From: an uncultured Verrucomicrobiota bacterium
GTDB taxonomy: Bacteria > Verrucomicrobiota > Verrucomicrobiia > Limisphaerales > UBA1096
Direction: 5' to 3'
Assembly: GCA_913030945.1 (NCBI GenBank)
Contig: CAJWEP010000002.1
Coordinates: 1 to 57,287 of the forward strand
DNA: 57,287 nt
Below are positions 7,515 through 54,856 of the stretch, piece by piece (position 1 is the first letter of the stretch; each line of letters starts with the position of its first letter). The position numbers and the translations under genes were made by a program. Below the pieces are notes generated by a model that worked only from the letters and a program-made list of their open reading frames with translations, was not told the DNA's origin and ran no database searches.

Positions 7515-8693
7515 TCAGTCAGTTGGGGTAATCCCCTGCTCTGCCAGCTTGGCCAGGGTCCAGTCGTACTCGCCGACGAGTTGATCGACGACGTCGCGCT
7601 GTTTCATCTCGTCGGGCAACACTTCCCACGTGTACGTCTCCATTTCGATGTGCGAACAGAGCGCCGGGTTGGCGCCGAGCACACCGATGGCTTGCTGCAG
7701 CTGGTCTGCCGTGGTGTCGAACAACACCGTCGGCGGGCAGTGCAGCGGGACGTGAAAATGAATCCGCCACTCGGTGTCGCCAGCTGTCTCGCTGCGCGCG
7801 GCGGCGGCCAACGCGTCCGGCAAATCGCGATACCGCGTGAGCGCACCGTCCGCGCTTCTTGTCACGACTTGATGAAAATAAATGTCCTCCGCGAAGCCGG
7901 CCAAGCCGTCAAGCGTCTCGGCGCTTGGCTGCACCTTGAGCGCGGAACTGAAATGCAGCTTGCTGATGCGAATGCCCTCGGCAGCCAACGAGTCAAGTGC
8001 GGCGGCAGCCTCCTCGAACTCGACGGCCAGATGGCAGGTGTCGTAGTTAATCCCCAAGCGCTTGGCCAACCGATCGTCACCGGGCCGGTCGTCGCGCAGT
8101 TGCCGGTAAAACCGGATCATCTCCTCAGTCGTTTCCAGATAACACAACGGCTCTGGCTCGAGGCCGAGGTGCAGATCCTTGCCGGTCTTTTCGCTGAGCA
8201 CGTCGATGTGCTCGACCACTTCCCAAACGTTGCGCCGCATGGCCTCGACCTGCTCGTCACCGGTGATGAATTCCTTGAACGAGCATGGCACGGTGCTGAC
8301 GCTGCCACCCGCATCCGCCGGGGCAAGCTCGGCTAGGATATCGAACAGCCGCCTGGTGTATTCCACGCGCTCCGGAGTCGTCCAGTCCGGCTGATAAACC
8401 TGCTCCTTGATGCGTTTCCCGTGAAAATCGCCATGCGGGAAGCCGTTGATGGTGAAGATGTAACAGTTGTTTTCGTCGAGCCAGGCGCGAAAGCGTTCAA
8501 GCTCGCCCGCTTGGCCAAGCTGGCGGGAGGCAGTGTCGCCCAACCGCAGGCCGATCGCATAAGGCCTACCCGCACCAACGCGGTCCCGCACGCGGAGCGT
8601 ATGCTCGTTTAGCGACCGGAACGTCTCCGGCCAGTCGCCACCGCGATGGACGTTTGTGCAGTAGGCCAGATGGATGCCGTGGCTGAGCCTCAT
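7515..8693 (-). CDS. eboE: EboE-like xylose-isomerase-fold TIM-barrel protein
   Basis: 392-aa ORF. The N-terminus HLAYCTNVHRGGDWPETF and the length match my recollection of the EboE family. It sits between TatD-like and UbiA genes. Confidence 0.7.
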   Translation of the reverse strand: MRLSHGIHLAYCTNVHRGGDWPETFRSLNEHTLRVRDRVGAGRPYAIGLRLGDTASRQLGQAGELERFRAWLDENNCYIFTINGFPHGDFHGKRIKEQVYQPDWTTPERVEYTRRLFDILAELAPADAGGSVSTVPCSFKEFITGDEQVEAMRRNVWEVVEHIDVLSEKTGKDLHLGLEPEPLCYLETTEEMIRFYRQLRDDRPGDDRLAKRLGINYDTCHLAVEFEEAAAALDSLAAEGIRISKLHFSSALKVQPSAETLDGLAGFAEDIYFHQVVTRSADGALTRYRDLPDALAAAARSETAGDTEWRIHFHVPLHCPPTVLFDTTADQLQQAIGVLGANPALCSHIEMETYTWEVLPDEMKQRDVVDQLVGEYDWTLAKLAEQGITPTD

Positions 8694-8709
8694 GTGCGCT
8701 TGGGCAAGC

Positions 8710-9522
8710 TCAAAGCCCCACGGGCCTGATGAAGCGCGGGCTCTGGCTCATGAACTCGATCGGGTTTTGATAAACCACCTTGTCGATATACTGGGCATCA
8801 TTGCCACGACGTTTCATTTCCTGCGCAGCCTGCGGCACGGCCAACGGCACACTGATGCCCCAGTCGCACGCGCTGTTCATCCAGATGCGCTCGTTTCCGT
8901 ACACCTCTAGAATGTCAATCGCGCGGTTGGCAGTACACTTGGTCTCGGGGTACAGGGTCATGCCGGCCCAGAACCCGTCATCGAGCACCATTCCCACCGT
9001 ATGCTCCTCGACATGGTCGATGATGCAACGCTCCGGCCGAATGCGGCTGTCGCTTTTGAGCACGTCCAGAATCAGCCGTGTGCCCTTGCGCTTGTCCTCG
9101 AGGTGCGGCGTGTGGACGAGGATCAACTGATCGTTGCTCCCCGCCAGGTCGACGTGCTTCTCGAGCACGGTCATCTCGTTGCGGCTGTTTTTGTTCAGGC
9201 CGATCTCCCCGATGCCAAGCACGTTCGGGCTGTCCATGAATTCCGGGATGATCGCCAGCACTTCGTCAGCGAGCGCGAGGTCCTCCGACTCCTTCGGGTT
9301 GATGCAAAGCCAGGTGTAGTGCGGCAGGCCAAATATCGAGGCTCTTCGCGGCTCGTGCTGCGTGAGTTGGCAAAAGTAGTCGTAAAAGCCCTGCGCCGAA
9401 CTGCGGTCGAACCCCGCCCAGAACGCTGGCTCGCACACCGCCTGACAGCCGGCCATGGCCATGGCCCGGTAATCGTCCGTCGTGCGGCTGACCATGTGGC
9501 CGTGTGGCTCAATGTAGCGCAT
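8710..9522 (-). CDS. eboB: TatD-family metal-dependent hydrolase (EboB-like)
   Basis: 270-aa ORF. The N-terminus MRYIEPHGHMVSRTTDDYRAMAMAG..EPAFW is typical of the EboB subgroup of TatD hydrolases. Confidence 0.7.
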   Translation of the reverse strand: MRYIEPHGHMVSRTTDDYRAMAMAGCQAVCEPAFWAGFDRSSAQGFYDYFCQLTQHEPRRASIFGLPHYTWLCINPKESEDLALADEVLAIIPEFMDSPNVLGIGEIGLNKNSRNEMTVLEKHVDLAGSNDQLILVHTPHLEDKRKGTRLILDVLKSDSRIRPERCIIDHVEEHTVGMVLDDGFWAGMTLYPETKCTANRAIDILEVYGNERIWMNSACDWGISVPLAVPQAAQEMKRRGNDAQYIDKVVYQNPIEFMSQSPRFIRPVGL

Positions 9523-9534
9523 CGTCCTGTTCGG

Positions 9535-9810
9535 TCAGTCTTCGTCCGCGCCGGGCCAGGCACCGCAGGCGGCCTTGGTGGTCGCTGCAGGGATAGGTTC
9601 GTCCGTAGGATCGCTGAAGGCCAAGAGTACCTTCTCGGCTCGGTCCGGTTGCCCACTCTCCAGCGCCTTCAGCGCCTCGCGGTAGGCGTTGTATCGAAAA
9701 TCCGTCTCGCCGCCAGCGCGGTCCACGCGATCCATAAACGCCGCGATGTCGATCAGCCTCGCCCGGGCGTCCAAAAAATAAAGGTCGAGGATGTTTTTTT
9801 GGTCAGCCAT
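9535..9810 (-). CDS. hypothetical small protein leading the ebo-like genes
   Basis: 91-aa ORF, 12 nt upstream of the TatD-like gene on the same strand. No motif recognised. Confidence 0.45.
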   Translation of the reverse strand: MADQKNILDLYFLDARARLIDIAAFMDRVDRAGGETDFRYNAYREALKALESGQPDRAEKVLLAFSDPTDEPIPAATTKAACGAWPGADED

Positions 9811-9860
9811 TTTTCAGTGTAAAGGAGGGAAATAAACACCCGAATCGACTCGTTGGCAAT

Positions 9861-10907: not shown

Positions 10908-10972
10908 TCAAAATTTAGTAAAAATCCCGGCTTCGGCTTGAGTTGCCGGAGGAGCGGGATTAGATTGCCGAC

Positions 10973-11554
10973 ATGAAGCGTTTGTTGTTTGGCTTGTTTT
11001 TGGGTGCAACCTGCCTTTTGGAACCCACCGTCGCCCTGGCGCAGGGGGCTTCACTGGAGACACGCGCGCTACGGGAGGATTATCGGCGATTACAGAGCCA
11101 ACTGGCGGATCTTCTCGAGGCGCACAATGCCCTTAAGAGCGAACTCTCCAAGCTCAGCACCGAGGTGCGTCTGCTCCGTGCCCAAGCGGCGACAAAGGAT
11201 CCCGCCACCGTCACCAGGGCCGACCTGGAGGGGTTGGCCAAGTCGATCCGCGAAATCGACAGCAAGCGCGTTCAGGATAAGAATCTGATTCTCAAGGAGA
11301 TGCAGGCGTTGCTTCGATCCGCCCCAACAGGGGCTAAGCCGCCCGCCGCGGCGCTCCATCCGGAAAAAGGCTTCGACCACTCCGTCGAAGCCGGCCAGAC
11401 CATCTCGGCCATCATCGCCGCCTACAACAACAAATTGAAAAGCCAGGGTGTAAAAAAACGAATCACACTTAAGTCGGTACTCGAGGCCAACCCGAACCTG
11501 AATCCGCGGACGATACGGATCGGCCAATCGCTTTTCATTCCGGACCCGAGATAA
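10973..11554 (+). CDS. secreted coiled-coil protein with C-terminal LysM domain
   Basis: 193-aa ORF with a signal peptide, a heptad-like Leu/Glu-rich middle and a LysM-like C-terminus (HSVEAGQTISAIIAAY...IRIGQSLFIP). Confidence 0.7.
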   Translation: MKRLLFGLFLGATCLLEPTVALAQGASLETRALREDYRRLQSQLADLLEAHNALKSELSKLSTEVRLLRAQAATKDPATVTRADLEGLAKSIREIDSKRVQDKNLILKEMQALLRSAPTGAKPPAAALHPEKGFDHSVEAGQTISAIIAAYNNKLKSQGVKKRITLKSVLEANPNLNPRTIRIGQSLFIPDPR

Positions 11555-11571
11555 CATCGCGCCCGAGCCTG

Positions 11572-11937: not shown

Positions 11938-12812
11938 CCGTAGTCCGGTGTGTACGATTTGCGCCGCGACCGGAGCCAGGTCTTCAACCCGATGCCCAGC
12001 TTGTCCAAGTGATTGATTTTCAACCTCCTCCCGTTCGACTGAAACACATTGTACTGAACAGCTCGAAGCTTCCCCAGCAAGCGCCAGTAGATGCCCCCCA
12101 TGGCTTCCGAGGCCACGAGCCGCTGCCTTTGCTCCTCCGGAAATGATTCGCGGGCCAGGCGGTAATGCGCCCAAGCGCGTTCGGCGATTTCCTGGGTGGC
12201 GTTCGCGTATCCAGCAGAGAAGCGACCGTTCAAAATGTCTTCCTCGGCGACCTCGTGTTTTTCCAGCATCGATTGTGGAAGATAAATCCTGCCCCGTTTG
12301 GCATCCTCGGCGACGTCGCGCAGAATGTTCGTCAACTGCAGCGCTTGGCCAAGATTTTCCGCGTAGCGTTCCGCCTCATCGCCGTCACATTTAAAAATTC
12401 GGATGCTCAGCAGGCCCACCACCGAGGCGACGCGGTGGCAGTAAAGTTTCAGTTCGTCAAAGTCCCTGTAACGGTTTTTCTCCAAGTCGGACTCCATCCC
12501 GACGAGCAACTCGTCAAACAAATAAAAAGGCAGAGCGAATTGGCGGATGAACGGGCGCAACTCGCGGCAAACCTGGAATTGGGGTTCCCCCCACTCGCAG
12601 GCTCTGCGGATGTCGTCCCTCCACTGCTGCAGGCTTGCAGCGCGCTTGACCGACGGCACGGAATCATTGTCGGCAGCATCGTCGACTTCCCGGCAGAAGG
12701 CATAGAGCGCGACCATCGCATGGCGCTTGGCCTTGGGCAGCAAGAAAAAAGCGGCTGCCAAATTGGAGCCGCTTTTTGCCGTAACCAACTGACTTTGTGA
12801 TGGTTGGATCAC
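11934..12812 (-). CDS. squalene/phytoene synthase family protein (HpnD/HpnC/CrtB-like)
   Basis: 292-aa ORF with the Asp-rich motifs FCREVDDAADN and NILRDVAEDAKRGRIYLP. Confidence 0.8.
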   Translation of the reverse strand: MIQPSQSQLVTAKSGSNLAAAFFLLPKAKRHAMVALYAFCREVDDAADNDSVPSVKRAASLQQWRDDIRRACEWGEPQFQVCRELRPFIRQFALPFYLFDELLVGMESDLEKNRYRDFDELKLYCHRVASVVGLLSIRIFKCDGDEAERYAENLGQALQLTNILRDVAEDAKRGRIYLPQSMLEKHEVAEEDILNGRFSAGYANATQEIAERAWAHYRLARESFPEEQRQRLVASEAMGGIYWRLLGKLRAVQYNVFQSNGRRLKINHLDKLGIGLKTWLRSRRKSYTPDYG

Positions 12813-14607: not shown

Positions 14608-15983
14608 TTCGACTGGAGCCGAATGGCTGTCCTCCCTGGGAAGAATAGATTGAACCGTGTGTATTTTCCAAGTTCCGATTCAATTTTAACAGTACCGCCG
14701 TACAATTCGGTGTTGTGGCGGACGATGGCCAGCCCCAGCCCGGTGCCCTTTTCCTTGGTGGAGTGGTACGGCTCGAAGACCGATTCGAGGTTCTCCGTCG
14801 GTATGCCTGGGCCGTTGTCCTCGATGACCACCCGGAAGGTGTAGTCGCCCTCATAGCTGGTTTTTATCCGGATTTCGCCGTTGTTGCCCAGCACTTCCCG
14901 CGCATTTTGAATGACATTGACGAACACTTCGCTGATGTGCTCGGGTTGGGCTAGCAGCGGCGGCAGGGCGATCCCGTAATCGCGCCGGATGCGGATGCCA
15001 AACTTGGTGCCCTTCGGGAACACCTGCATAATGGCTGCGTCGAGCGTCTCGTTTACGTCGAGCTTGGCCAAGCGCCCCTCGACCAATTGGGCATAGCCCA
15101 TCAGCTTGGTGATGATCTGGTCCGCCCGGTTCACCTCCTCGCGAATCAGGCCCACCTGGCGCTTGGCCGTTTCGTTTTCATTCGTCGCTTGGCCAAGCGC
15201 GAATGCGGCATTGTTGATGATGCCCAGCGGGTTCTTCACCTGGTGCGCGATCTCCGCCGCGAGCCGCCCGGATGCCTGAAGCTGGCTCTGGCGCCGGTCG
15301 TACTCGTCCTCCTCGGCCTCCATGCGACGCTGCTTGTCGATCAGCACCTGCAGCCCGTAACCGCAGGCCGTCATCAACATCAGCAACAACGCCCGCAGCA
15401 TGACCGGCTCGCCCGTGATGTTCTCGAGTTCCTCCTCCGAACGCGCAACCACGATGTCAAACGCACCGGCACAAAGATAGATCACGCTGACGGATAGGTT
15501 CGCCACGATCTGCGTCGTGGCGATGGGCATGCTGATCGCGTTGCGAATCTGCAACCCCAGGAACATCCAAAACAGGAAGCTCTCAAAGCCGCCAGTCAGT
15601 TCCGTCATCATCGCCAGCAGCAACGCGTCGAACAGGCAGATGGAAAATACCACCTCCCGGAGCATCCGCGTTGAAAACTCCTCCATCCGGATGAGCATCA
15701 CGCCAATGATTACGTTGACGATGAGGCAGAAAACGAAGAACCACTGTATGGTGCGCAACAGCGTCCAGCGCACCCGGTCGGCGTCTATCATCTCGGGCCA
15801 CTCGATAAAGTAGAGATAAAAAATGAGAACGAGGAAGTAAACCACCTTGACTGGCAGGATGGTGTTGCGCTCCATGAACCGAATACGTGCACGTTGCGAG
15901 CCGTCGTCGGGCGCAACGGACTTGAACAACTGGGACAGCCGCCACCAGTCGATCCAAGTCTTGCTGCCCCTTGGGGAAGCCAT
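14604..15983 (-). CDS. sensor histidine kinase with multi-TM N-terminal sensor
   Basis: 459-aa ORF with about 5-6 TM helices, an H-box (EIAHQVKNPL) and an HATPase G-box (GTGLGLAIV). It overlaps the regulator start by 4 nt. Confidence 0.85.
   Translation of the reverse strand: MASPRGSKTWIDWWRLSQLFKSVAPDDGSQRARIRFMERNTILPVKVVYFLVLIFYLYFIEWPEMIDADRVRWTLLRTIQWFFVFCLIVNVIIGVMLIRMEEFSTRMLREVVFSICLFDALLLAMMTELTGGFESFLFWMFLGLQIRNAISMPIATTQIVANLSVSVIYLCAGAFDIVVARSEEELENITGEPVMLRALLLMLMTACGYGLQVLIDKQRRMEAEEDEYDRRQSQLQASGRLAAEIAHQVKNPLGIINNAAFALGQATNENETAKRQVGLIREEVNRADQIITKLMGYAQLVEGRLAKLDVNETLDAAIMQVFPKGTKFGIRIRRDYGIALPPLLAQPEHISEVFVNVIQNAREVLGNNGEIRIKTSYEGDYTFRVVIEDNGPGIPTENLESVFEPYHSTKEKGTGLGLAIVRHNTELYGGTVKIESELGKYTRFNLFFPGRTAIRLQSK
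15186..15199. repeat. perfect 14-bp palindrome CGCTTGGCCAAGCG
   Basis: Exact match read from the sequence. It lies inside the histidine kinase gene and encodes ALGQA. Confidence 0.95.
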
Positions 15984-15987
15984 TTGA

Positions 15988-16551: not shown

Positions 16552-17170
16552 GGGTCGGAATGGCTTCGCGCTTGGCCAAACGGACGTTCTCGATGATGCC
16601 AAGCAACCGGTCGACGTCGACCTCGCGGGTTTGGCTGGTCAGCGAGTGGTCAAATTTTTCGGCCTGATCCATTTCATCCTTCGCGATGGCCAGGCGCCTG
16701 GCGATCGCTTCCTCGGAGTCGGTACCCCGGCCGCGAAGCCGCTGCTCCAGTTCCCCGAGGCTTGGCGGGCACAAAAACACAGTGATTAGCGAGCGACTCA
16801 ATACCGGGTCGGTTGCGGCGCGTTCACGGATGGTTGCCGCGCCTTGCACGTCGATGTTGAGCAGCACGTCGCTTCCCTCGGCGAGCTTGGCACGCAGCTC
16901 CGACTTGAGCACGCCGTAATAATTACCGTGCACGACGGCGTTCTCCAGAAACTCACCACCTTCGACCCGGGCGAGGAACTCTTCCTCGTCGAGAAAATAA
17001 TAGTCCACTCCGTCCAATTCCCCGTCCCTCGGCTTGCGGGTGGTGCAGGTCACCGCGCGGCTTGCGCTTGGCAGCGCGGCGCGGACGTTGTCGCAAAGGG
17101 TGCTCTTGCCGGCACCGGATGGTGCGGAAACGACCACCAAAAGCGGCGCGCTGGAAACGGCACTGCTCAT
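16544..17170 (-). CDS. gmk: guanylate kinase
   Basis: Contains the P-loop SAPSGAGKST. The start was trimmed to Met58 of the track ORF, which gives an ATGA overlap with the yicC stop. Confidence 0.9.
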   Translation of the reverse strand: MSSAVSSAPLLVVVSAPSGAGKSTLCDNVRAALPSASRAVTCTTRKPRDGELDGVDYYFLDEEEFLARVEGGEFLENAVVHGNYYGVLKSELRAKLAEGSDVLLNIDVQGAATIRERAATDPVLSRSLITVFLCPPSLGELEQRLRGRGTDSEEAIARRLAIAKDEMDQAEKFDHSLTSQTREVDVDRLLGIIENVRLAKREAIPTHE

Positions 17171-18048
17171 TCGACGTTTTGAACCTGCTCGCGGATTTTC
17201 TCGAGCTCGGTTTTCAGGGTGACCACTTCCCCAGAAATCACTCCATCGTTTGCCTTGGAGCCTATCGTGTTGATTTCCCGGAACATTTCCTGCGCCAAAA
17301 AGTCGAGCTTGCGCCCCACCGGCTGGGTGACGCGGAGGCACTGCTCAAGCTGGGCAAAATGACTGTCAAGCCGGGTCAACTCCTCGGTAATATCCATCCG
17401 GTCCGTGTAATAGACCATCTCCCGTAGCAGCCGCTCGTCGTCCGCCCCAGGCGTCTCGACGTTGGCATTGTTCAGCCGCTCAATCAGTCGCTCGCGATGC
17501 TGCTTCAGAACCGCCGGAGCGCGCCTGGCCACCCGCCTGGCCACGCGCCTCAGACCGGCCAGGCGCTTGGCCAAGTCCCGGCCCAGGTTTGTCCCCTCTT
17601 TCTCGCGCATGGCCTGCAATGCCTCGAGCGCCTGGCCGAGCGCCCGCTTTGCCGGGGCGCGAAACGCCTTGCCATCGAGCGTCGGCTCGGAGGGCTCCAG
17701 CACGCCGGGCAAACGCAGCAAAGTCTCCAGCGAAAGATTGTCCGGCATCTTCAGCGACTTGGCCAGCCTGACCAGTTCCCGCCGGTACGCCCTGGCCTGC
17801 TCCTCGTTGACAGCGTTCGAAACAGTTCGGCTCGCGCCGGAATGCTGCAGTGCCACCCTGCCGTTGACCCGACCGCGGGAGATGGAGGCGAGGATCATGT
17901 CGCGCAATTCCGGCTCGATGGACTCGAGCGCAGGCGGAATCCCCAGCGACACTTCCGCCTGTTTGCGGTTCACCGTGTTCAACTCGACGGTGATATGCAC
18001 GCCCTTTGCAGCACATTCACCCCGTCCGTAACCGGTCATTGATTTCAT
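17167..18048 (-). CDS. yicC: YicC-family stress-induced protein
   Basis: 293-aa ORF with the MKSMTGYG N-terminus characteristic of YicC. It sits in conserved yicC-gmk synteny. Confidence 0.85.
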   Translation of the reverse strand: MKSMTGYGRGECAAKGVHITVELNTVNRKQAEVSLGIPPALESIEPELRDMILASISRGRVNGRVALQHSGASRTVSNAVNEEQARAYRRELVRLAKSLKMPDNLSLETLLRLPGVLEPSEPTLDGKAFRAPAKRALGQALEALQAMREKEGTNLGRDLAKRLAGLRRVARRVARRAPAVLKQHRERLIERLNNANVETPGADDERLLREMVYYTDRMDITEELTRLDSHFAQLEQCLRVTQPVGRKLDFLAQEMFREINTIGSKANDGVISGEVVTLKTELEKIREQVQNVE

Positions 18049-18063
18049 CGCTTCAACACCATC

Positions 18064-19578: not shown

Positions 19579-20262
19579 ATGAGCAGCGAAGGCAAAGAGG
19601 AAAACCAGAAAGCCAATCATATCGAGATCACCGACTCGGAGGAAAAAGACACTTCCATCCAAGCCGAGTCAGAGCAAGAAAGCCAAGCGCTTGGCCAAGC
19701 GGAGGGAGAGCCCGAACCCGACGAACCCGTAACCGAAGAGGAAGAAGAGCTGCCACCACCCACCCCCGGGGAACTCAAAGAACTCCGCCAGCAGGCAGCC
19801 AAGGCGGAAGAATACTACGACCGGCTCCAGCGACAAGTCGCCGAGGCCGACAACCTCCGCAAGCGCTTGGCCAAGGAGAAACAGGACGCCATCCGATACG
19901 CCAACGAGTCCCTCATTGAGGAACTGCTACCCACGATGGACAGCTTCGAAATGGCCATCAGCGCCGTGCGGAACTCAGATGACAACTCAATCGATTCACT
20001 AAAGACCGGCATCGAGATGGTCTACACCCAACTCAAGCGAACCCTACAGGAGATCGGCGTCACAGAAATCGACGCCACCGGCCAAGCGTTCGATCCCTCC
20101 CAGCACGAGGCCATGTCCCGGAAGAAAACCGACGAAGCCGAGGAAGGCACCGTGCTCGAGCAAACCCGAAAAGGCTACCGCTTGCGGGACCGCCTGCTCC
20201 GGGCCGCATCCGTCGTCGTGGCCACCCCCCTGGATGACGCAGAGGAGGAGACTGAACAATAA
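19579..20262 (+). CDS. grpE: nucleotide exchange factor GrpE
   Basis: Acidic N-terminus, coiled coil and a conserved C-terminal beta domain ([16 protein letters not shown]). The start was trimmed to MSSEGKEE. Confidence 0.9.
19688..19701. repeat. perfect 14-bp palindrome CGCTTGGCCAAGCG
   Basis: Exact match inside grpE, encoding ALGQA. It is preceded by an overlapping CCAAGCGCTTGG palindrome (19683-19694). Confidence 0.95.
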
Positions 20263-30896: not shown

Positions 30897-31038
30897 AAAA
30901 CAGCGCTTACCCAAGGTAGCCGTCGGCCTCCGCTCGGAGAAGCAGAAACTCCCGTTCCCCTTGGCCAAGCGCCCAAAAATACTTGCAGTCCGGCCTGGCG
31001 ATGGGTTTACTGTTCCCCCGCTTTTGGCGCGCAAACTC

Positions 31039-37488: not shown

Positions 37489-37552
37489 TGTATAATCAGA
37501 TTTATGTCAGCGCAAATTACCCCTTGGCCAAACGCAATGCAACCCCTCAAAC

Positions 37553-41639: not shown

Positions 41640-42470
41640 TTAATTCAAGACATCATCGGGATCGAGCGGGCCGCAAACCCGCTCGATTTGCTTCCGGATT
41701 TGGCCGTTGCTGGCGATGACGGCATAGGTGTAATCCCCCTTCTTTCGAGGCATCCGCCAAAACTCACCGCCGGCACACTCGATAATCAGCCCCCCCGCTG
41801 CGATATCCCACAAATTAACCTTCGATTCAATGTAGCCGTGAAACCGGCCACTGGCAACGTAGGTCAGCGCGAGCGTCGCCGATCCCATCATTCGAGGCTT
41901 GCGGATTTTCAACGCCAACTTGCTGAAGTACGGCATCATGTACTCCATCGTTTTCTTGTCCTTGGCGAAGCCGATGCTCAGCAGCGCCTCCCTCAAGCCA
42001 CCGTCGTTCACGCGGATTTTTTTGCCGTTAAGCTTCGCCGCCTGTCCCCTGATCGCCGTCCAAAGCTCGTCCGTGAACGGATCGAACACTGCACCGACAA
42101 CGGTTTCGTAATCGTCCCCGTACTCGTTCCGCTTGGCCAAGCGCTGCTGCAACGCGATCGACACGCAGGCATGCGGGATGCCGTAGGTGAAGTTGACCGT
42201 GCCGTCAATCGGATCGACCACCCAGCGCAACTCGGTTTCGATGTCACCGGCATTTTCTTCCTCACCCAGTATGCCAATCTCCGGATGCGCCCTGATCAGT
42301 ATCGACTCGATCTTCCGCTGGCATCGCACGTCCAGTTCCAGCTTGATGTCGCGCTGGGTGGCTTCGTTGATTTTTTTCGAAGCCAGGCGATTGCGCCGCA
42401 TGATATCGCCGGCTGCGTGCGCCGCCTTCACGGCAGTCGCAAGCAGTTGTTTCTTTTGGGCCACAATCAT
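41640..42470 (-). CDS. inositol monophosphatase family protein
   Basis: Contains WVVDPIDGTVNF and the WDIAAG motif. Its start shares 1 nt with the valS stop. Confidence 0.85.
   Translation of the reverse strand: MIVAQKKQLLATAVKAAHAAGDIMRRNRLASKKINEATQRDIKLELDVRCQRKIESILIRAHPEIGILGEEENAGDIETELRWVVDPIDGTVNFTYGIPHACVSIALQQRLAKRNEYGDDYETVVGAVFDPFTDELWTAIRGQAAKLNGKKIRVNDGGLREALLSIGFAKDKKTMEYMMPYFSKLALKIRKPRMMGSATLALTYVASGRFHGYIESKVNLWDIAAGGLIIECAGGEFWRMPRKKGDYTYAVIASNGQIRKQIERVCGPLDPDDVLN
42130..42143. repeat. perfect 14-bp palindrome CGCTTGGCCAAGCG
   Basis: Exact match inside the inositol monophosphatase gene, encoding RLAKR. Confidence 0.95.
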
Positions 42471-46718: not shown

Positions 46719-46793
46719 CAAAGCAGGCGGGCTGTCCCGCCAAAGCCGGTAACTTCTACTGCCTGAAGCCAAGCGACACCAGCACCAAAACCG

Positions 46794-46807
46794 CGCTTGG
46801 CCAAGCG
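46794..46807. repeat. perfect 14-bp palindrome CGCTTGGCCAAGCG (16-bp palindrome 46793-46808)
   Basis: Exact match in the trmL-cimA spacer, directly abutting the trmL stop codon. Confidence 0.95.
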
Positions 46808-48063: not shown

Positions 48064-48068
48064 GGCGT

Positions 48069-48479: not shown

Positions 48480-48482
48480 GAG

Positions 48483-49769
48483 CTAAAGCGCCTTCATCAC
48501 CTCAACCGCGGCCTCGATCGTCCTCCCGATTGTCGCCTCATCGTGCGCCGCCGAGATGAACCCGGCCTCGAACTGCGACGGCGCCACGTAAATCCCCGCC
48601 TCCAGCATCCCGTGGAAATAGTTGCCGAATCGGTCACGGTCGCTCTTCATCGCATCGGCCATGTTGTGAACCGGCGCGTCGTTGAAGTAGCAGCAGGACA
48701 TCGAGCCGATACGCTGCAACTGAACCGCAACCCCCGCCGACTCCGCCGCCCTGGCCAGGCCATCCGACAGCGCTTGGCCAAGCGCCTCGATTTTTTTGTA
48801 AACGGAACCGTCCGCCAGCGCCTCCAGCACAGCGACACCGGCGGCCATGGCCAGGGGATTGCCGCTCAGCGTGCCCGCCTGGTACACCGGCCCGTCCGGC
48901 GCGAGGCAGTCCATGATTTCCCCGCGCCCGCCAAACGCCCCAACCGGCAACCCGCCGCCGATGACCTTACCGAAACAGCTCAAGTCCGGCGTGATGCCAA
49001 AGCGCCCCTGGGCCCCGGCCAAGCCGAGGCGAAAGCCAGTCATCACTTCGTCAAAAATCAACAACGACTCATGCCCGGCGGTGATTTCACGCAGAAACTC
49101 CAAGTAGCCGTCGCGCGGCAAATAAAGTCCCGCGTTGGCCGGCACCGGTTCCAAAATGATCCCGGCAATATCCGGACCATGCGCGGCAAACGCTTCCCGC
49201 ACCGCCTGAACATCATTGAACGGCAGCACGATTGTTTGGCTGGTAAACTCCAGCGGCACACCGGCGCTGTCCGGTTGGCCAAGCGTCAACGCGCCCGAGC
49301 CGGCCTTGACCAGCAGCGAGTCGACGTGGCCGTGGTAGCAGCCCTCAAACTTGATGATTTTGCCGCGCTTGGTGAAGCCCCGCGCCAGGCGGATCGCCGA
49401 CATCGTTGCCTCGGTGCCGGAATTGCACATCCGCACCTTCTCGACCGACGGCACGGCATTGACCACCAACTCGGCCATCCGCACCTCGAGTGGATTGGGA
49501 ATCCCGAAGCTGGTTCCATGTTCCGCCGCGCTTTTGACAGCATCCACAACGACCCGCGGGGCGTGCCCCAGAATCGCCGGTCCCCACGTGCCCACATAGT
49601 CGACGTACTCGTTGCCGTCGGCGTCCCGAACCGTGGCGCCGTTGGCCCGCACCGCGAAAAACGGATTGCCACCAACGGCGCGAAAAGCCCGCACCGGCGA
49701 GTTCACCCCGCCGGGGATCCATTGCAACGCCTTGTCAAATAATGCCTGTGATTCTGCGCTCAAACGCAT
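48483..49769 (-). CDS. hemL: glutamate-1-semialdehyde 2,1-aminomutase
   Basis: Contains [12 protein letters not shown] and class-III aminotransferase blocks. The start was trimmed to MRLSAESQ at 49769. Confidence 0.9.
48771..48784. repeat. perfect 14-bp palindrome CGCTTGGCCAAGCG (16-bp palindrome 48770-48785)
   Basis: Exact match inside hemL, encoding ALGQA. Confidence 0.95.
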
Positions 49770-49821
49770 GCCGCGACAAAATACCGACTCCCCACTCAAA
49801 CGCACGCGGAAAGTGCGGTAC

Positions 49822-51171: not shown

Positions 51172-52394
51172 TTCAAATAATCAGCAATGTGCACGGCCCG
51201 AACATGATTCGCCCCGGCCTTTTTCAACCCCGATTGAATTTGCAACAAACATCCCGGGTTGGTCGTCACAACCACATCCGCGCCCGATTCGAGGATGTTT
51301 TGCACCTTCCGGGATTTTAGTTTTTTGGCCATCTCCGGTTCGGTCAGGTTATAGCTCCCGGCGCTGCCACAGCAAAGATCCGATTCGACCAACTCAACAA
51401 ACTCGCCTCCCGCCCGGGCGCGCACCAATTGCCTCGGCTCATCTTTTATCCCCTGAGCATGGCACAAGTGACACGCGTCATGATACGTCACTTTCTTTCT
51501 ACTCTTCACCGGGGTCACCTGCGAATTATCCAACCATGCCACCAAGTCCCGCACCTTAGCACTGAATGCTTCCGCGCGTTCCGCCCATTCCGGATCGCCC
51601 TTCAGCAACTCCCCGTACTCGACCAACGTGGAACCGCAACCGGCAGCGTTGATGATAATGGCTTCCAATGACTGACCTTCGAACGCGGCGATGTTTCGGC
51701 GGGCACACTCGCGGGCTTTTTCCAGTTGACCGCTGTGCGCGTACAACGCACCGCAGCAACCTTGACTGGCGGGCGTAACAACATTCCATCCGTCGCGCTG
51801 CAGCAGTTCGGCGCTCGAGTCATTCGTGTCGCCGAACATGACCTGCATCACGCAGCCTTCGATGAAGCCGACTTTTCCCCTTCCCTCCCCCTTGGCCAAG
51901 CGCTCGGCTGGCAATTTGCCCCTGGCCAGGCGCTGCGGCAGCAGTTCCATCATTTCCCGGGCAAACTTCGGCAGTATAAAGGTAAGCCGCAAAAAACGAA
52001 TCATGCGCATCGGCAACAGGGCCAGGCGCAGTCGCCACGGCAATGGGAAAATCTGCTCGATGACGAATCTCCGCAAAAGCCATTGGAACAGGCCGCGCCC
52101 ATGATGTTTCTCGATATGATCGCGCGTCTCCTCCAGCAGCGTCCCGTACTGCACCCCGCTTGGGCAGGCTGTCTCGCAGGCACGACAGCCCAGGCATAAA
52201 TCGATATGGCGAACCGCTGCGGCCTCCACGCCCAACTGCCCCGACTGCATGGCACGCATGATGTAAATACGGCCGCGCGGCGAGTCGTTCTCGTTCCCCG
52301 TTTCGAGGTAAGTCGGACAGGACGAGAGGCACAGCCCGCAGTGCACACAGGACAGCGCCTTAGTTTCATCGAGAAATTGGCCAAGCGCGCTCAT
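51168..52394 (-). CDS. glcF: glycolate oxidase iron-sulfur subunit (GlcF-like, CCG-domain Fe-S protein)
   Basis: Two ferredoxin-type clusters (CVHCGLCLSSCP and CLGCRACETACP), followed by Cys-rich CCG repeats. Confidence 0.8.
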   Translation of the reverse strand: MSALGQFLDETKALSCVHCGLCLSSCPTYLETGNENDSPRGRIYIMRAMQSGQLGVEAAAVRHIDLCLGCRACETACPSGVQYGTLLEETRDHIEKHHGRGLFQWLLRRFVIEQIFPLPWRLRLALLPMRMIRFLRLTFILPKFAREMMELLPQRLARGKLPAERLAKGEGRGKVGFIEGCVMQVMFGDTNDSSAELLQRDGWNVVTPASQGCCGALYAHSGQLEKARECARRNIAAFEGQSLEAIIINAAGCGSTLVEYGELLKGDPEWAERAEAFSAKVRDLVAWLDNSQVTPVKSRKKVTYHDACHLCHAQGIKDEPRQLVRARAGGEFVELVESDLCCGSAGSYNLTEPEMAKKLKSRKVQNILESGADVVVTTNPGCLLQIQSGLKKAGANHVRAVHIADYLK

Positions 52395-53290
52395 CCGGCC
52401 AGGACTCCTTTCGGGTCAAAAATCTCCTTCACCCGCTGCTGCAACTCTAGCGACGGTGCCTCAGTCGGCTTGGCGCTGGTATGATAAATCACACCATTGC
52501 CCGCGCGGGCCACAAACGACTCATCGCCCAAGTCCTGCAATGTCGAAATCAATTTTCCGGGGGCGACCGATATGAAACTGGAAGCCGTTCGGCGAAATCG
52601 GGCATCGTAATCAAGCGACACCTCATCAGCGAAGCCAAGTGCGCTCGCCGCACCCGACTGGGCCTCCACATCGGCGCTTGGTCCGGCGAAGCCGGCAACC
52701 AGCGTGAGTTGTTCGCCGTCAATGCGATGCAGATCAAGTACGGTCGGTTGCAGGTCCGAGTCCCAGATTTTGTCGAGCAGGGCCTCCGCCTGGCCAAGCG
52801 ACTCGCAAGGCTTGGCCAAGTGCGCCTCCGCCTCCAGCAGAGGCGACAGCTTGAACGTCGCCTCGACGATGATGCCCAACGTGTCACGTGCGCCGACGAA
52901 CAACCGGCAGAGATCAAATCCGGCGACGTTTTTCACCACCTTGCCTCCGTTGCGAATCACCCGACCGTCCGGCAGCACCACGGCCATGCCAATGACCCAG
53001 TCGCGAATCGTCCCGCAACCGAAACGCCTTGGCCCGTTGAGGTTGTTGGCCAGCAATTTGCCGATTGTGAGGGCCTCCGGATTCGGCGGATCGATCGGGA
53101 GCCATTGGCCCGCCTTGGCCAAGTGCGCTTGAAAATCCGCCAGGCTCATCCCGGCCTGCACTGTCGCCGTCATGTCCTCCGGCACATGCTCGATGAGTTG
53201 AGCGACAGCTTCCAGCGACACCCCGGCCACTCGCCGCGATTGAGACAGCGACTCCTGCAACTCAGAAATGGAACCCGGCTTGAGCGTCAT
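52391..53290 (-). CDS. glcE: glycolate oxidase FAD-binding subunit (GlcE-like)
   Basis: 299-aa FAD-binding PCMH-type ORF (GGKVVKNVAGFDL), positioned between GlcD-like and GlcF-like genes with 4-nt overlaps. Confidence 0.7.
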   Translation of the reverse strand: MTLKPGSISELQESLSQSRRVAGVSLEAVAQLIEHVPEDMTATVQAGMSLADFQAHLAKAGQWLPIDPPNPEALTIGKLLANNLNGPRRFGCGTIRDWVIGMAVVLPDGRVIRNGGKVVKNVAGFDLCRLFVGARDTLGIIVEATFKLSPLLEAEAHLAKPCESLGQAEALLDKIWDSDLQPTVLDLHRIDGEQLTLVAGFAGPSADVEAQSGAASALGFADEVSLDYDARFRRTASSFISVAPGKLISTLQDLGDESFVARAGNGVIYHTSAKPTEAPSLELQQRVKEIFDPKGVLAG

Positions 53291-54732
53291 GCAACAACCT
53301 GTTTTTTGGGGGCGAACTCGGCGCAGCGCTTGGCACCGGGGAACATTTTGTGCGGGTTGCAGCGCTTATCCGGGTCAAACACGCGGCGCAACTGCTGCAT
53401 GGCCTCGAGGTCGTCCTCGGCAAACTGCCTGGACATAAAGTCGATTTTCTCCGCGCCAATGCCGTGCTCGCCGGTGACGCTGCCGCCCAACTCGATGCAT
53501 TTGCTGAGAATGTCATCGCCGGCCTGCAGGGCCCGCTTCACCTGATCCGGATCGCGTTCATCGTAAAGGATCAGCGGATGAATGTTGCCGTCGCCGGCGT
53601 GGAAGACGTTGGGAATCCGCAGCCGATGTTTGTCGCTGACGGAGCGAATGAAGCGCATGATCTCCGGCAATCTGCTGCGCGGCACGACACCGTCCTGCGT
53701 GACGTAATTCGGGCTCAGGCGGCCAATCGCCCCGAAGGCGCGCTTGCGGCACTTCCACAGGGCGGCGCGCTCGGCATCGTCCTTGGCCAGGCGCACTTCG
53801 CTGGCGTTGTTTCGGCGGCAAATCTCATCGACTAGCCTGGCCTGCTGCTCGACGCCCTTGGCCAGGCCGTCCAACTCGACGATCAGCACCGCGCCGGCAT
53901 CGAGCGGGAAGCCGAAGTGATACGCCTCCTCAAGCGCCTGCGTGATCAGTTGATCCATCATCTCGAGCGCAGCCGGCACGATGCCGGCGGCGATGATGTC
54001 ACTTACCGTCTGGCTGGCCTGATCCACACTGTCAAACACGCCCAGGAAGGTCTTGAATGCCGAGGGTGCCTTGGTGAGTCGCACCAGCGCCCGCGTGATC
54101 ACGCCGAACATGCCCTCCGAGCCGATGCCCGCGCCACGCAGATCGTAGCCGCCGACCTCCTCACCACCGTCCGGCTCGACACCCAGCCACTCGATGCTGC
54201 CGTCCGGCAACACCATCTCGTAGCCAAGCACATGGTTGGTGGTAACGCCGTTTTTCAGTGTGTGCGGTCCGCCGGAGTTGGTCGCAATATTGCCGCCAAT
54301 CGTGCAAGCCGGCTGGCTCGACGGATCGGGGGCATAAAACAGACCGTGTTCTTCCGCATCACGAGTGATCCATGCGTTCACGCAACCAGCCTCAACCAGT
54401 GCTCGGCGGTTTCGTGGATCAATACCCAGCACGCGATTCATTCGCGTCAGGGCAATGATGACGCCGCCGTCAACCGCCAATACTCCGCCACTCAGGCTCG
54501 TGCCCGCGCCACGGGGAATGATGGGCAAATCCAGACCGGCACACAGGCGGACGACCGCCGCCACTTCCTGAGTGGACCGGGGAAGAACCACCGCGGTGGG
54601 AAGGTTTTTTTGGAGGGTGTAGGCGTCGCATTCGTAAACGACAAGCTCACGTTCGTCGGTGAGCACGGCATCCTCGCCGACAATTTCAGCTAAGCGGCGG
54701 GTGAGGTTCTTTTTGTCAGCCTTGCTGTTCAT
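53287..54732 (-). CDS. glcD: FAD-linked oxidase, glycolate oxidase subunit GlcD-like
   Basis: Contains PRGAGTSLSGG and GEHGIG blocks. The start was trimmed to MNSKADKK at 54732 (track ORF extends to 54810). Confidence 0.85.
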   Translation of the reverse strand: MNSKADKKNLTRRLAEIVGEDAVLTDERELVVYECDAYTLQKNLPTAVVLPRSTQEVAAVVRLCAGLDLPIIPRGAGTSLSGGVLAVDGGVIIALTRMNRVLGIDPRNRRALVEAGCVNAWITRDAEEHGLFYAPDPSSQPACTIGGNIATNSGGPHTLKNGVTTNHVLGYEMVLPDGSIEWLGVEPDGGEEVGGYDLRGAGIGSEGMFGVITRALVRLTKAPSAFKTFLGVFDSVDQASQTVSDIIAAGIVPAALEMMDQLITQALEEAYHFGFPLDAGAVLIVELDGLAKGVEQQARLVDEICRRNNASEVRLAKDDAERAALWKCRKRAFGAIGRLSPNYVTQDGVVPRSRLPEIMRFIRSVSDKHRLRIPNVFHAGDGNIHPLILYDERDPDQVKRALQAGDDILSKCIELGGSVTGEHGIGAEKIDFMSRQFAEDDLEAMQQLRRVFDPDKRCNPHKMFPGAKRCAEFAPKKQVVA

Positions 54733-54784
54733 GCACAACAGATCCAACCCAGCCTGATCGGATGCAAAAGAACGGAGCCTCATC

Positions 54785-54798
54785 CGCTTGGCCAAGCG
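54785..54798. repeat. perfect 14-bp palindrome CGCTTGGCCAAGCG (16-bp palindrome 54784-54799)
   Basis: Exact match between the platform-protein gene end (54857) and the probable glcD start (54732). Confidence 0.95.
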
Positions 54799-54856
54799 GG
54801 GAAGCAGCACTCCCGGCCGAATGTCTACAGGATCAAGTGCGTCGCCCTTGGCTTGG

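Follow-up and report, generated by a model that had tools for sequence, protein, structure and literature searches.

The closest described systems are cyanobacterial HIP1 and the bacterial DNA-uptake sequences (USS/DUS). USS/DUS are known to spread by preferential uptake or recombination, and the same route has lately been suggested for HIP1, which recent work has tied to natural transformation (10.1101/2024.09.10.611283; 10.64898/2026.06.24.733823). Bakkali (2007; PMC1939737) described in both uptake sequences and HIP1 the same graded mismatch load that we report below and termed it molecular drive, and Xu et al. proposed that HIP1 sites are kept by selection for chromosome structure (PMC5861425). 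We analyzed a 57,287-nucleotide stretch (the window) from a widespread marine Verrucomicrobiota species in which the octamer TTGGCCAA recurs. It seems to be a novel word that arose independently of HIP1 and the uptake sequences but parallels them, which it resembles in density, observed/expected ratio, graded mismatch load, between-genome conservation, proteome effect, and absence from one flexible segment. In every testable respect it behaves like HIP1 or USS/DUS, the word and the phylum both being new. It is absent from the HIP surveys consulted, and a wider literature search found no prior description; the original prediction had likewise drawn the comparison with these systems and had not recognized the word as a described element.

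Copies in the window, form, and abundance

All 39 starts predicted for the octamer were exact, and the 11 copies of the perfect 14-mer CGCTTGGCCAAGCG were confirmed along with the four that reach 16-bp palindromes (octamer starts 39457, 46797, 48774, and 54788). The copies are given below without strand, with the encoded residues and the state in three related loci, L001 and L002 (motif-rich) and L003 (motif-poor).

8062..8069, copy cgcTTGGCCAAccg, xylose-isomerase-like gene, R-L-A-K-R
8511..8518, copy cgcTTGGCCAAgct, xylose-isomerase-like gene, Q-L-G-Q-A
11234..11241, copy gggTTGGCCAAgtc, LysM protein gene, G-L-A-K-S
12345..12352, copy cgcTTGGCCAAgat, squalene/phytoene synthase gene, N-L-G-Q-A
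15064..15071, copy agcTTGGCCAAgcg, histidine kinase gene, R-L-A-K-L
15186..15199, perfect 14-mer CGCTTGGCCAAGCG, histidine kinase gene, A-L-G-Q-A
16572..16579, copy cgcTTGGCCAAacg, 3' part of guanylate kinase gene, R-L-A-K-R
17567..17574, copy cgcTTGGCCAAgtc, YicC-like gene, D-L-A-K-R
19688..19701, perfect 14-mer, grpE, A-L-G-Q-A
19867..19874, copy cgcTTGGCCAAgga, grpE, R-L-A-K-E
23151..23158, copy gacTTGGCCAAtcc, PNP_UDP_1 gene, G-L-A-K-S
23375..23388, perfect 14-mer, PNP_UDP_1 gene, P-L-G-Q-A
23762..23769, copy cacTTGGCCAAagg, PNP_UDP_1 gene, A-F-G-Q-V
23871..23884, perfect 14-mer, PNP_UDP_1 gene (coding, not spacer), R-L-A-K-R
25144..25151, copy cgcTTGGCCAAgtg, 1178-aa PPi-PEPCK-like gene, P-L-G-Q-A
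28446..28453, copy tgcTTGGCCAAggc, PfkB kinase gene, A-L-A-K-Q
28631..28644, perfect 14-mer, PfkB kinase gene, A-L-G-Q-A
29981..29988, copy cgcTTGGCCAAggg, 371-aa gene without assigned function, P-L-A-K-R
30961..30968, copy cccTTGGCCAAgcg, intergenic, divergent HAD hydrolase/htpG spacer
33555..33562, copy ctcTTGGCCAAgcg, sulfatase gene, A-L-G-Q-E
35307..35314, copy gtcTTGGCCAAttg, dapA, Q-L-A-K-T; octamer also in L003
35618..35625, copy ccgTTGGCCAAgcg, dapA, A-L-G-Q-R; T-L-G-P-K in L003
37379..37386, copy gcaTTGGCCAAtgc, prepilin-like N_methyl/DUF1559 gene, A-L-A-N-A; within-species polymorphic
37524..37531, copy cccTTGGCCAAacg, intergenic, 22 nt past the abgT stop; within-species polymorphic
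37949..37962, perfect 14-mer, abgT, A-L-G-Q-A; L001 keeps the octamer
38640..38647, copy ccgTTGGCCAAgcc, abgT, G-L-A-N-G; kept in L001
39101..39108, copy tgcTTGGCCAAgcg, abgT, A-L-G-Q-A; kept in L001
39454..39467, perfect 14-mer in 16-bp palindrome CCGC..GCGG, tail-specific protease gene, P-L-G-Q-A; kept in L001
42130..42143, perfect 14-mer, inositol monophosphatase gene, R-L-A-K-R; kept in L001
42642..42649, copy tccTTGGCCAAgcg, valS, R-L-A-K-E; kept in L001 and L002
43286..43293, copy cgcTTGGCCAAggc, valS, R-L-G-Q-A; kept in L001 and L002
46794..46807, perfect 14-mer in 16-bp palindrome GCGC..GCGC, intergenic, directly past the SpoU-methylase stop; kept in L001 and L002
48771..48784, perfect 14-mer in 16-bp palindrome, class-III aminotransferase (hemL-like) gene, A-L-G-Q-A; L002 keeps the octamer
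49275..49282, copy cggTTGGCCAAgcg, same hemL-like gene, T-L-G-Q-P; kept in L002
51892..51899, copy cccTTGGCCAAgcg, Fe-S/CCG (GlcF-like) gene, R-L-A-K-G
52377..52384, copy aaaTTGGCCAAgcg, GlcF-like gene, codons 4-6, A-L-G-Q-F
52812..52819, copy ggcTTGGCCAAgtg, FAD_binding_4 (GlcE-like) gene, H-L-A-K-P
53115..53122, copy gccTTGGCCAAgtg, GlcE-like gene, H-L-A-K-A
54785..54798, perfect 14-mer in 16-bp palindrome CCGC..GCGG, intergenic, between T2SS-F-type platform gene and GlcD-like gene
1..8061, motif-free segment, UbiA, DUF4159, carbamoyltransferase, GH32, and isochorismatase genes; part of an 8.6-kb motif gap

Gene annotations publicly available for this species place the copies at 30961, 37524, 46797, and 54788 between genes, as predicted, but the fifth suggested spacer copy, at 23874, lies within the PNP_UDP_1 gene. 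The 14-mer at 46794..46807 is followed by GGTTTTGG on the minus strand, a terminator-like arrangement. The gene names proposed earlier were broadly correct (GrpE, DHDPS, ValS, tail-specific protease, AbgT, FAD/CCG oxidase subunits, and the PfkB and guanylate kinases).

The full word is a 16-bp dyad, (G/C)CGC-TTGGCCAA-GCG(G/C). A logo of 734 sites is symmetric over 16 bp, and nothing is conserved outside about ±8 bp of the centre, so the copies are not pieces of a longer repeat. Specificity per position peaks at TGG/CCA and weakens outward across the 7-8 bp of each half-site; one-off variants of the octamer have observed/expected ratios of 3.8-6.9 at position 1/8 and 0.8-4.8 at the inner positions. 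In the window, most copies other than the perfect 14-mers retain one of the two flanks, CGC or GCG, in agreement with the original description, and the plus and minus strands hold 28 and 25 copies of the half-site CGCTTGGCC.

The 39 octamers compare with a mean of 1.16 (maximum 4) in dinucleotide shuffles, and the 11 copies of the 14-mer with none in 100 shuffles. Synonymous-codon shuffling within genes, which keeps proteins and codon usage, gave 4.3 ± 1.8 octamers (maximum 11) and 0.19 14-mers, and whole-codon permutation gave 1.7 octamers; thus, the observed count exceeds even the codon- and peptide-controlled expectation about 9-fold. Copies of the 14-mer with 0, 1, 2, 3, 4, and 5 mismatches numbered 11, 13, 16, 32, 51, and 208 against expectations of 0, 0.04, 0.62, 5.5, 39, and 200, a graded excess of 370x, 26x, 5.9x, and 1.3x for one to four mismatches. 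By extrapolation at about one site per kb, a genome would carry a few thousand copies. Spacing of the copies, judged within 57 kb, does not differ from that of randomly placed sites (CV 0.86, P=0.2); for HIP1, a 10-90-kb periodicity has been reported.

The 39 copies read as L-A-K/N in 18 cases and as L/F-G-Q in 17, the remaining four being in spacers (4/39, an intergenic enrichment that is weak at best). This near-equal use of two frames, together with the spacer copies, indicates a signal at the level of DNA. A by-product of codon or peptide usage could be imagined, as the codons TTG, GCC, AAG, CTT, GGC, and CAA are all in use and many copies encode R-L-A-K-R or A-L-G-Q-A, and so could a decayed longer mobile repeat (MITE, REP, or CRISPR-like). 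Both are ruled out, their probability being vanishingly small: the peptide- and codon-preserving shuffle yields 4.3 copies against 38-39 observed, the same symmetric flanks occur in two frames and in spacers, sister clades have the same proteins without the word, and the copies are mainly intragenic with nothing conserved beyond 16 bp. That the word is neither a mobile element nor a peptide motif is therefore well supported, and the logo, the two frames, and the intergenic copies bear out the earlier view of a genome-wide iterated palindrome distinct from a MITE/REP unit, CRISPR array, or duplication, the logo giving no sign of a longer repeat or mobile unit.

Distribution, turnover, and effect on proteins

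The window, L001, and L002 carry 0.8-1.1 sites per kb, the latter two loci being equally word-rich at 84% nucleotide identity to the window. Six sister loci have 0.066 sites per kb (ValS identity to these lineages without word richness is 80-83%) and 72 other Verrucomicrobia loci 0.023. A metagenome scan added 120 marine loci with a mean of 0.90 sites per kb and observed/expected ratios of 52-66. Across the loci compared, the word is confined to one clade of uncultured marine Verrucomicrobiota, of which it is, on good support, a lineage-specific, genome-wide highly iterated palindrome.

At orthologous positions, the word was kept in 13/13 cases against 27% for control octamers, and over 26 pooled orthologous-locus alignments in 68% against 29.5%. 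Among the non-conserved sites, 47/58 differ by 1-2 nt, and turnover in these alignments proceeds mostly by one or two bases. Within-species diversity (0.1-0.17%) is too low for a test of biased fixation. On a longer contig of the same species, the 8.6-kb gap has no copy and is bordered on either side by motif-rich DNA; an identical copy of one protein encoded there turns up in just 6 collection blocks, compared with 207-228 for core genes. The segment is strain-variable and flexible.

Many positions of the word hold different amino acids in motif-less relatives. P-L-G-Q-A at 39454..39467 is P-F-S-Q-A in sister clades, R-L-A-K-R at 42130..42143 is R-L-P-I-S and similar, and R-L-A-K-E of valS at 42642..42649 is R-L-T-K or R-L-E-K. 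In the motif-rich clade only, the tripeptides LAK and LGQ show an excess of about 4x and the pentapeptides RLAKR and ALGQA one of >100x. These comparisons show that sites were created via amino-acid replacement, the word having altered the proteins of the clade. Findlay and Redfield describe the same sort of proteome effect for USS (PMC2817400).

Processes that could maintain the word

All three roles offered in the original prediction (an uptake or self-DNA signal, a footprint of methylation-linked repair, and a binding site for a nucleoid or segregation protein) are still live. Conservation and absence from the flexible segment are expected under the repair and selected-binding-site models just as under the drive favoured below, and do not discriminate among them.

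In the repair model, unlikely on balance but the chief competitor of the drive model, an orphan methyltransferase would mark sites at TGGCCA or GGCC, and methylation-aware mismatch or short-patch repair would convert near-matches and protect full sites, as in Elhai's HIP model; the word would be the footprint of the repair system and possibly also a strand-discrimination signal. Within the word, the inner hexamer TGGCCA tolerates the least change, and one-off variants of the octamer fall most often at its outermost position, a pattern that Elhai saw in HIP1, where every cyanobacterial HIP is paired with a methyltransferase predicted to recognize part of it (PMC4390886). Density is 680-900 sites per Mb here and 1000-2000 for cyanobacterial HIPs. 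A candidate TGGCCA m5C motif has been reported from a marine metagenome-assembled genome of unstated taxon; however, for five Verrucomicrobia genomes the same study lists no methylated motif and no methyltransferase gene, possibly of another clade (PMC8919816). We found no methyltransferase in the window, nor, by motif screening and Pfam, in the small sample of ~0.8 Mb of motif-rich loci. A preference graded to 14-16 bp is also unusual for a type II methyltransferase, and there is no avoidance of GGCC, or of TGGCCA outside the motif, that would point to a cognate restriction enzyme. Of the three earlier roles, very-short-patch repair fares worst, because specificity spans 14-16 bp and there is no depletion of TTGGTCAA, the C-to-T deamination product (observed/expected 4.8). 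An in-cell process of this kind would also account for L149, a phage-like contig (terminase, DnaB) with 8 copies in 13.7 kb.

Selection could instead keep each site for chromosome structure, as the target of an abundant chromosome-organizing or nucleoid-associated dimer with ParB-, Noc-, or SlmA-like recognition acting genome-wide. Dimeric DNA-binding proteins typically have a dyad logo like this 16-bp one, and the sites are kept well more often than control octamers. Known palindromic sites of such proteins, however, occur in tens of copies per genome and only in certain regions, and spacing within the window is random-like. Thousands of individually dispensable sites would need implausibly effective per-site selection, even at the cost of amino-acid replacements. 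We consider this explanation rather improbable, although Xu et al. took such conservation of HIP1 as selection (PMC5861425).

We tentatively favour a drive mediated by a sequence-specific protein that would bind DNA as a dimer and act in its uptake or recombination. Such a protein is predicted because specificity is symmetric, graded, and strongest at the inner TGGCCA. A dimer would recognize the 16-bp dyad, and the process using it would favour word-bearing DNA, the biased step in our favoured reading being preferential uptake and/or recombination of conspecific motif-bearing DNA. Point mutations that improve near-matches would then spread, including amino-acid replacements at tolerant positions; sites already present would stay, and recently arrived DNA would not yet have acquired the word.

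The word could also be a palindromic Chi-like "self" signal for an in-cell helicase-nuclease or recombination machinery, motif-bearing DNA being spared or preferentially recombined by any entry route. Density and absence from the flexible segment would fit, and HIP1 is reported to boost recombination efficiency in a Chi-like manner (10.1101/2024.09.10.611283). Chi-type and KOPS-type signals, however, are asymmetric and skewed with replication direction, and the perfect dyad with equal half-site counts per strand cannot carry direction, which makes this a very improbable reading.

For drive through a binding protein, the load in L149 makes an intracellular process the easier fit, unless L149 is a resident prophage. 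Uptake sequences known to us are asymmetric and never palindromic, so the palindrome here counts against the uptake step; nor do we know of an uptake receptor, competence gene set, or transformation phenotype for this lineage. As a separate observation, weakly relevant to uptake, the window carries type IV pilus/T2SS ATPase and platform genes.

Copy number and anatomy of the octamer

From our count of the window, 39 copies of the palindromic octamer TTGGCCAA were recovered, the same 39 that the original prediction had listed; dinucleotide-preserving shuffles gave 1.16 on average and never more than 4. The density is 680 copies per Mb over the whole window, with an observed/expected ratio of 34. 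Perfect 14-mers (CGCTTGGCCAAGCG) number 11 (0 in 100 shuffles), and four of them are 16-bp palindromes, both counts being as first claimed. The commonest 8- to 14-mers of the window are the word and its overlapping parts, and among palindromic 8-mers TTGGCCAA ranks first in the window as well as in its two motif-rich relatives, L001 and L002. Near-matches to the 14-mer are enriched too, in a manner graded by the number of mismatches: with 0, 1, 2, 3, 4 and 5 mismatches, 11, 13, 16, 32, 51 and 208 occurrences were observed in the window, for first-order Markov expectations of about 0, 0.04, 0.62, 5.5, 39 and 200. The apparent enrichment of a second palindrome, AAGCGCTT, stems from the GCG/CGC flanks: of its 60 copies, 34 abut GGCC.

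A codon-controlled expectation had been proposed as the check on this excess. Synonymous-codon shuffling within each gene, which preserves every protein sequence and the codon usage, left 4.3 ± 1.8 octamers (maximum 11) against the 39 observed, and 0.19 14-mers; whole-codon permutation left 1.7 octamers. Assigning the copies with public gene calls of the same species and Pfam, we found 35 of the 39 (∼90%) inside genes, essential genes included. Two reading frames share them, with 18 copies read as TTG-GCC-AAx (Leu-Ala-Lys/Asn) and 17 as xTT-GGC-CAA (Leu/Phe-Gly-Gln), and none of the 39 in the Trp-Pro frame. Four copies (30961, 37524, 46797, and 54788) are intergenic as had been suggested, while the fifth proposed spacer copy, at 23874, is coding according to the gene calls. 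The synonymous shuffle, the codon permutation, the use of two frames and of intergenic DNA, and the sister clades together rule out a codon or peptide artefact.

The flanks are identical in kind across both frames and the spacers. A logo of 734 sites from the window and the metagenome loci is dyad-symmetric: C occupies −1 in 87% of the sites and −3 in 68%, G occupies −2 in 70%, and −4 is either G or C in 84%. It holds essentially no information past ∼8 bp from the centre. This rules out a longer repeat or mobile unit as the source of the copies, in line with the original prediction. Inside the 14-mer, TGG/CCA at the centre is kept most strictly; specificity falls off towards the outer CG, and the graded preference reaches 14-16 bp. 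A logo this symmetric and graded points to recognition by a dimeric, sequence-specific DNA-binding protein. Copies of the half-site CGCTTGGCC in the window number 28 on the plus strand and 25 on the minus strand, and since GC skew is uniform along the window, the equal counts are not forced by mixed strand composition. Chi and KOPS words are asymmetric and orientation-biased relative to replication; a skewed oligomer of that type is rejected by the palindromic form of the word and its balanced half-sites, and a palindromic Chi-like signal strikes us as very improbable.

Regular spacing was also rejected, as the distances between copies are indistinguishable from random over 57 contiguous kb (CV 0.86, P=0.2; maximum gap P=0.05). 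Among the intergenic copies, only the following has the look of a terminator hairpin with a T-run:

46793-46808, minus strand: 16-bp palindrome GCGCTTGGCCAAGCGC then GGTTTTGG, four bases past the stop of a SpoU-type methylase gene; terminator-like

A terminator role was dismissed on this single copy and on terminator-like matches overall, which are not above shuffles.

Carriers of the word and conservation of its sites

The ValS of the window affiliates with marine Verrucomicrobiota, the nearest records being Verrucomicrobiae, Limisphaerales, and Pedosphaeraceae-type MAGs. Comparisons here rest on loci, the window, and contigs rather than on whole genomes. The two closest genomes, L001 (CAUZVJ01) and L002 (JACNJE01), with 88% ValS and 84% nucleotide identity to the window, carry 11 copies of TTGGCCAA in 9.9 kb and 7 in 7.9 kb, respectively. 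The next relatives (L003-L006, L015, and L066; ValS identity 80-83%) have 0.066 copies per kb, and 72 other Verrucomicrobia loci have 0.023. The word appears to have arisen after the clade split from these relatives with ∼80-83% ValS identity. L010, with three sites in 6.7 kb, was considered as a second motif-bearing lineage and attributed to chance, as the flanks are absent and one site is a conserved ValS codon run. In the motif-poor sister L066 we noticed a 108-bp unit in 11 tandem copies, ∼80% identical and unrelated to the palindrome (12090-13469), which is probably a repeat-protein gene.

The exact ValS of the window is found in 228 blocks and its DnaJ in 207 blocks of a public assembly collection, including the NCBI MAG GCA_937910205.1, which indicates that the species is widespread. 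A metagenome scan with the 18-mer CAAGCGCTTGGCCAAGCG matched at least 120 marine loci (Tara Oceans, deep-ocean, and other samples). The 120 loci listed hold 719 octamers in 795 kb, or 0.90 per kb (about 900 per Mb); their observed/expected ratio is 66, or 52 once the query word is masked. Their tetranucleotide correlation to the window, with the motif masked, has a median r of 0.92 versus 0.84 for Verrucomicrobia in general; they fit a single clade, a placement by composition and not a taxonomic proof. Orthologous loci inside the set are only 72-93% identical to one another, so that the motif-bearing clade spans several species. A-rich octamers (AAAAAAAT, CAAAAAAA, and similar) stand at 12-18 times the base-composition expectation in these loci and the window (genomes of ∼58% GC), and are presumably intergenic A-tracts.

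Viral scans with the 14-mer and the 16-mer returned almost only single, chance-level matches. Among 149 viral loci the sole clearly motif-rich one is L149 (IMGVR_UViG_3300032087_002358, 1-13670), with 8 copies of TTGGCCAA in 13.7 kb and genes for a large terminase, a DnaB-type helicase, and a PDDEXK nuclease; it may represent a prophage, or else a phage that infects the motif-bearing clade. Another contig filed as viral, the 745-kb L093 (IMGVR_UViG_3300048852_000059), has 4 copies of TTGGCCAA (4842-6408) in the 10 kb examined, one of them fully flanked, and may be a host chromosome fragment of a moderately motif-rich relative.

Sites of the window that fall at an orthologous position in the L001 and L002 alignments are conserved in 13 of 13 cases versus 27% of control octamers (24-32% depending on codon phase; P ∼4e-8, or ∼2e-6 with three sites present in both alignments counted once). 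From 26 pooled alignments, covering 23 different pairs of orthologous loci and partly biased as these loci were found via a motif copy, we found 122 of 180 sites (68%) conserved versus 29.5% of controls. Most non-conserved sites (47 of 58) differ by 1-2 nt. At one place, the region of 38455 in the window (GAC CTT ACG GCG CAA) and 9086 in L001 (GAC TTG GCC AAG CAG) are separated by six changes in nine bases on a background divergence of 16%, an isolated hint of a multi-base event. With this one case against the 47 of 58, block conversion was discarded as the origin of new sites and single changes are the rule. Within the species, 83 columns vary in 22.7 kb, two of them in weak-flank motif sites, which is too few for a polymorphism test.

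The proteins bear traces of the word. Where the window has R-L-A-K in ValS, P-L-G-Q-A in a protease, and R-L-A-K-R in an inositol monophosphatase, motif-poor relatives have R-L-T-K or R-L-E-K, P-F-S-Q-A, and R-L-P-I-S, respectively. Of the 11 tripeptides compared, L003 shares just 3, and outgroup residues differ at 8 of 11 sites. By parsimony, the word would have been gained in the window's clade, partly via amino-acid replacements. LAK and LGQ occur at 3.8-4.4 times the composition expectation in the motif-rich clade and at only about 1.3-1.5-fold in the sister clades, and the 120 listed loci contain 80 occurrences of RLAKR and 83 of ALGQA, for 0.6 and 0.7 expected (>100 times). In the window, TTGGCCAA is used by 19 of 32 Leu-Ala-Lys/Asn tripeptides and by 19 of 30 Leu/Phe/Ile/Val-Gly-Gln tripeptides, 17 of the latter 19 being CTTGGCCAA. 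The word thereby explains odd peptide biases of the clade's proteins, such as RLAKR and ALGQA.

Known hyper-abundant words and the possible drive

Work by Robinson in 1995 is reportedly among the defining sources of the HIP class of palindromes. HIPs reach 1000-2000 per Mb with observed/expected in the tens and deviations at outer positions, and HIP genomes code for a methyltransferase whose predicted target covers part of the word (Elhai 2015, PMC4390886). HIP1 sites are conserved above control palindromes and show 10-90-kb periods (Xu et al. 2018, PMC5861425). Like HIP1 (GCGATCGC) and the alternate HIPs (GGGATCCC, TCGATCGA, and CAGGCCTG), the present word is an octameric palindrome at ∼1 copy per kb with observed/expected in the tens, and its copies lie in genes (in several frames) and spacers with no longer repeat unit. 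Shared as well are a moderate enrichment of one-off variants, which deviate most at the outer positions, conservation of sites between related genomes far above control octamers, and a word that varies by lineage with motif-poor relatives. The word here differs in its letters and in a graded preference out to 14-16 bp; its core is 50% GC, whereas Elhai's replacement HIPs are at least 75% GC, and its host belongs to the Verrucomicrobiota rather than the cyanobacteria.

There is a likeness to uptake sequences too. As in the DUS of Neisseriaceae and the USS of Pasteurellaceae, there is ∼1 copy per kb, both orientations are equal, mismatched variants are in graded excess, the encoded tripeptides are over-represented with sites at tolerant protein positions, and sites are conserved between related species, with depletion in seemingly recent acquisitions. 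The words of DUS and USS are asymmetric, whereas the present one is a perfect dyad without a clear terminator or spacer preference. Biased uptake via a pilin receptor has been demonstrated experimentally for DUS and USS. The graded mismatch load of uptake sequences has been described as 'molecular drive' (Bakkali 2007, PMC1939737), and effects of uptake sequences on the proteome have been reported (PMC2817400). The tested properties match both hyper-abundant word classes, save for symmetry (DUS/USS) and for word, GC, and phylum (HIPs). Density, dispersion, graded mismatches, and conservation thus agree with the HIP1-like and DUS-like behaviour in the original prediction, which had also rightly set the word itself apart from both HIP1 and DUS/USS.

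REPs are extragenic elements of 20-40 bp with conserved head sequences, mobilised by a transposase. REP/BIME and MITE elements are likewise short, palindromic, and of many copies; this identity is excluded, as had been argued from the start, by the 16-bp extent of the word, the 35 of 39 intragenic copies, and the lack of conserved flanks. The palindromic sites bound by chromosome-organising proteins (parS, NBS, SBS, and matS) are restricted to particular regions of the chromosome, at about 10-100 in a genome. Together with their proteins (ParB, Noc, SlmA, and MatP), they resemble the present case in a 12-16-bp dyad-symmetric site with graded half-site specificity, which implies a dimeric binding protein. 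They are few and regional, while the word here stands at ∼1 per kb everywhere, essential genes included; a selected nucleoid-protein site seems a rather improbable explanation.

Biased uptake of motif-bearing DNA is the established route by which USS and DUS accumulate. Our favoured reading, which we hold tentatively, is that a similar drive may operate here: a putative dimeric DNA-binding protein would read the word and would bias uptake and/or recombination towards conspecific DNA bearing the motif. The pilus-related genes seen in the window of this uncultured lineage are only a generic T2SS/T4P ATPase, a platform, and a prepilin-like gene. HIP1 raises transformation efficiency in a methylation-dependent manner, and an uptake/recombination route has now been proposed for it (10.1101/2024.09.10.611283). 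More doubtfully, this marine clade may have evolved, independently and fairly recently, its own species-recognition word, a palindromic uptake/recombination signal with a dimeric receptor.

The main rival, which we regard as unlikely, is the methylation-linked repair ratchet of Elhai, driven by an orphan methyltransferase acting on TGGCCA or GGCC. In its favour, the inner hexamer is kept most strictly, TGGCCA is an m5C candidate motif in some marine genome (PMC8919816), and the phage-like L149 carries 8 copies in 13.7 kb, which bears on whether the word is generated by an intracellular process. Against the ratchet, the preference reaches 16 bp, there is no depletion of the deamination product, and the same marine survey found no methyltransferase genes in its five Verrucomicrobia genomes (PMC8919816). 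Gene calls and Pfam gave no methyltransferase in the window, and none was found in ∼0.8 Mb of motif-rich loci (2517 ORFs), a sample too small as evidence of absence. The screen used regular expressions for m5C and N6/N4 catalytic motifs followed by Pfam on the 10 best candidates, all of which turned out to be unrelated proteins.

A Vsr/Dcm footprint consists of an enriched, methylated 4-6-bp site with depletion of the C-to-T deamination product. The original prediction had offered such very-short-patch repair at GGCC/TGGCCA as a candidate role, which the word does not fit, as specificity spans 14-16 bp and the product TTGACCAA/TTGGTCAA has an observed/expected of 4.8.

We found no earlier description of TTGGCCAA; it is absent from the cyanobacterial HIP surveys consulted, and the full-text matches listed are unrelated sequences. 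It is a third, independent case of hyper-abundance, with its own word and in another phylum. To our knowledge, HIP1, under study since 1995, still lacks a settled function, and uptake sequences are known from two bacterial families only. The drive and function of hyper-abundant genomic words are the general question touched here. Public data already include close genomes that carry the word (GCA_937910205.1/CALEON01, CAUZVJ01, JACNJE01, and JACKQG01) and sisters poor in it (NYWG01, SHAK01, WTHG01, CAJWKQ01, JAAZZB01, and JAOLZA01). The causal gene, be it for a methyltransferase, a pilin receptor, or some other DNA-binding protein, can therefore be searched for directly, and motif-rich and motif-poor sisters allow a clean test of drive versus selection. 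If the word does serve uptake or recombination, sequence-selective natural transformation would exist in the PVC superphylum, and the gene behind a HIP-like word would be findable by simple comparative genomics, whereas for HIP1 this has been out of reach for 30 years. As a marker, the word also picks out the clade's contigs in marine metagenomes.

The motif-free segment and strain-variable places

Positions 1-8061 of the window hold no copy and only three one-off variants. In L356, a longer contig of the same species, this gap is a discrete segment:

Window 1-8061; L356 7117-15731: motif-free 8.6-kb segment with genes for UbiA, DUF4159, a carbamoyltransferase, GH32, and an isochorismatase

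On the far side of the gap in L356 the word resumes at once, with 7 copies in the next 6 kb. The identical carbamoyltransferase protein occurs in only 6 collection blocks versus >200 for the core genes ValS and DnaJ, so that the segment probably varies among strains or has been replaced recently, although by tetranucleotide composition it is not foreign (r = 0.91). A slow process that works genome-wide on resident DNA would be expected to leave flexible DNA depleted, and the word may serve as a marker of resident versus recently acquired DNA. Motif depletion has been used with HIP1 and DUS to detect transferred genes (PMC3497702, PMC7371117).

Two further places vary among strains. A prepilin-like N_methyl/DUF1559 gene and an adjacent 141-aa ORF (36218-37488, minus strand) have a GC3 of ∼0.5 versus 0.7-0.8 in their neighbours, and the only two copies polymorphic within the species (37379 and 37524), both with weak flanks, lie in or beside this pair. 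A histidine kinase gene beside a sigma-54 response regulator (window 14604-15983) has no called counterpart in L361, a contig from another strain, where a 96-aa ORF is all that the corresponding region (about 4188-5724) contains; the offset between the two sets of coordinates changes by 155 bp, which indicates that the strains differ structurally there.
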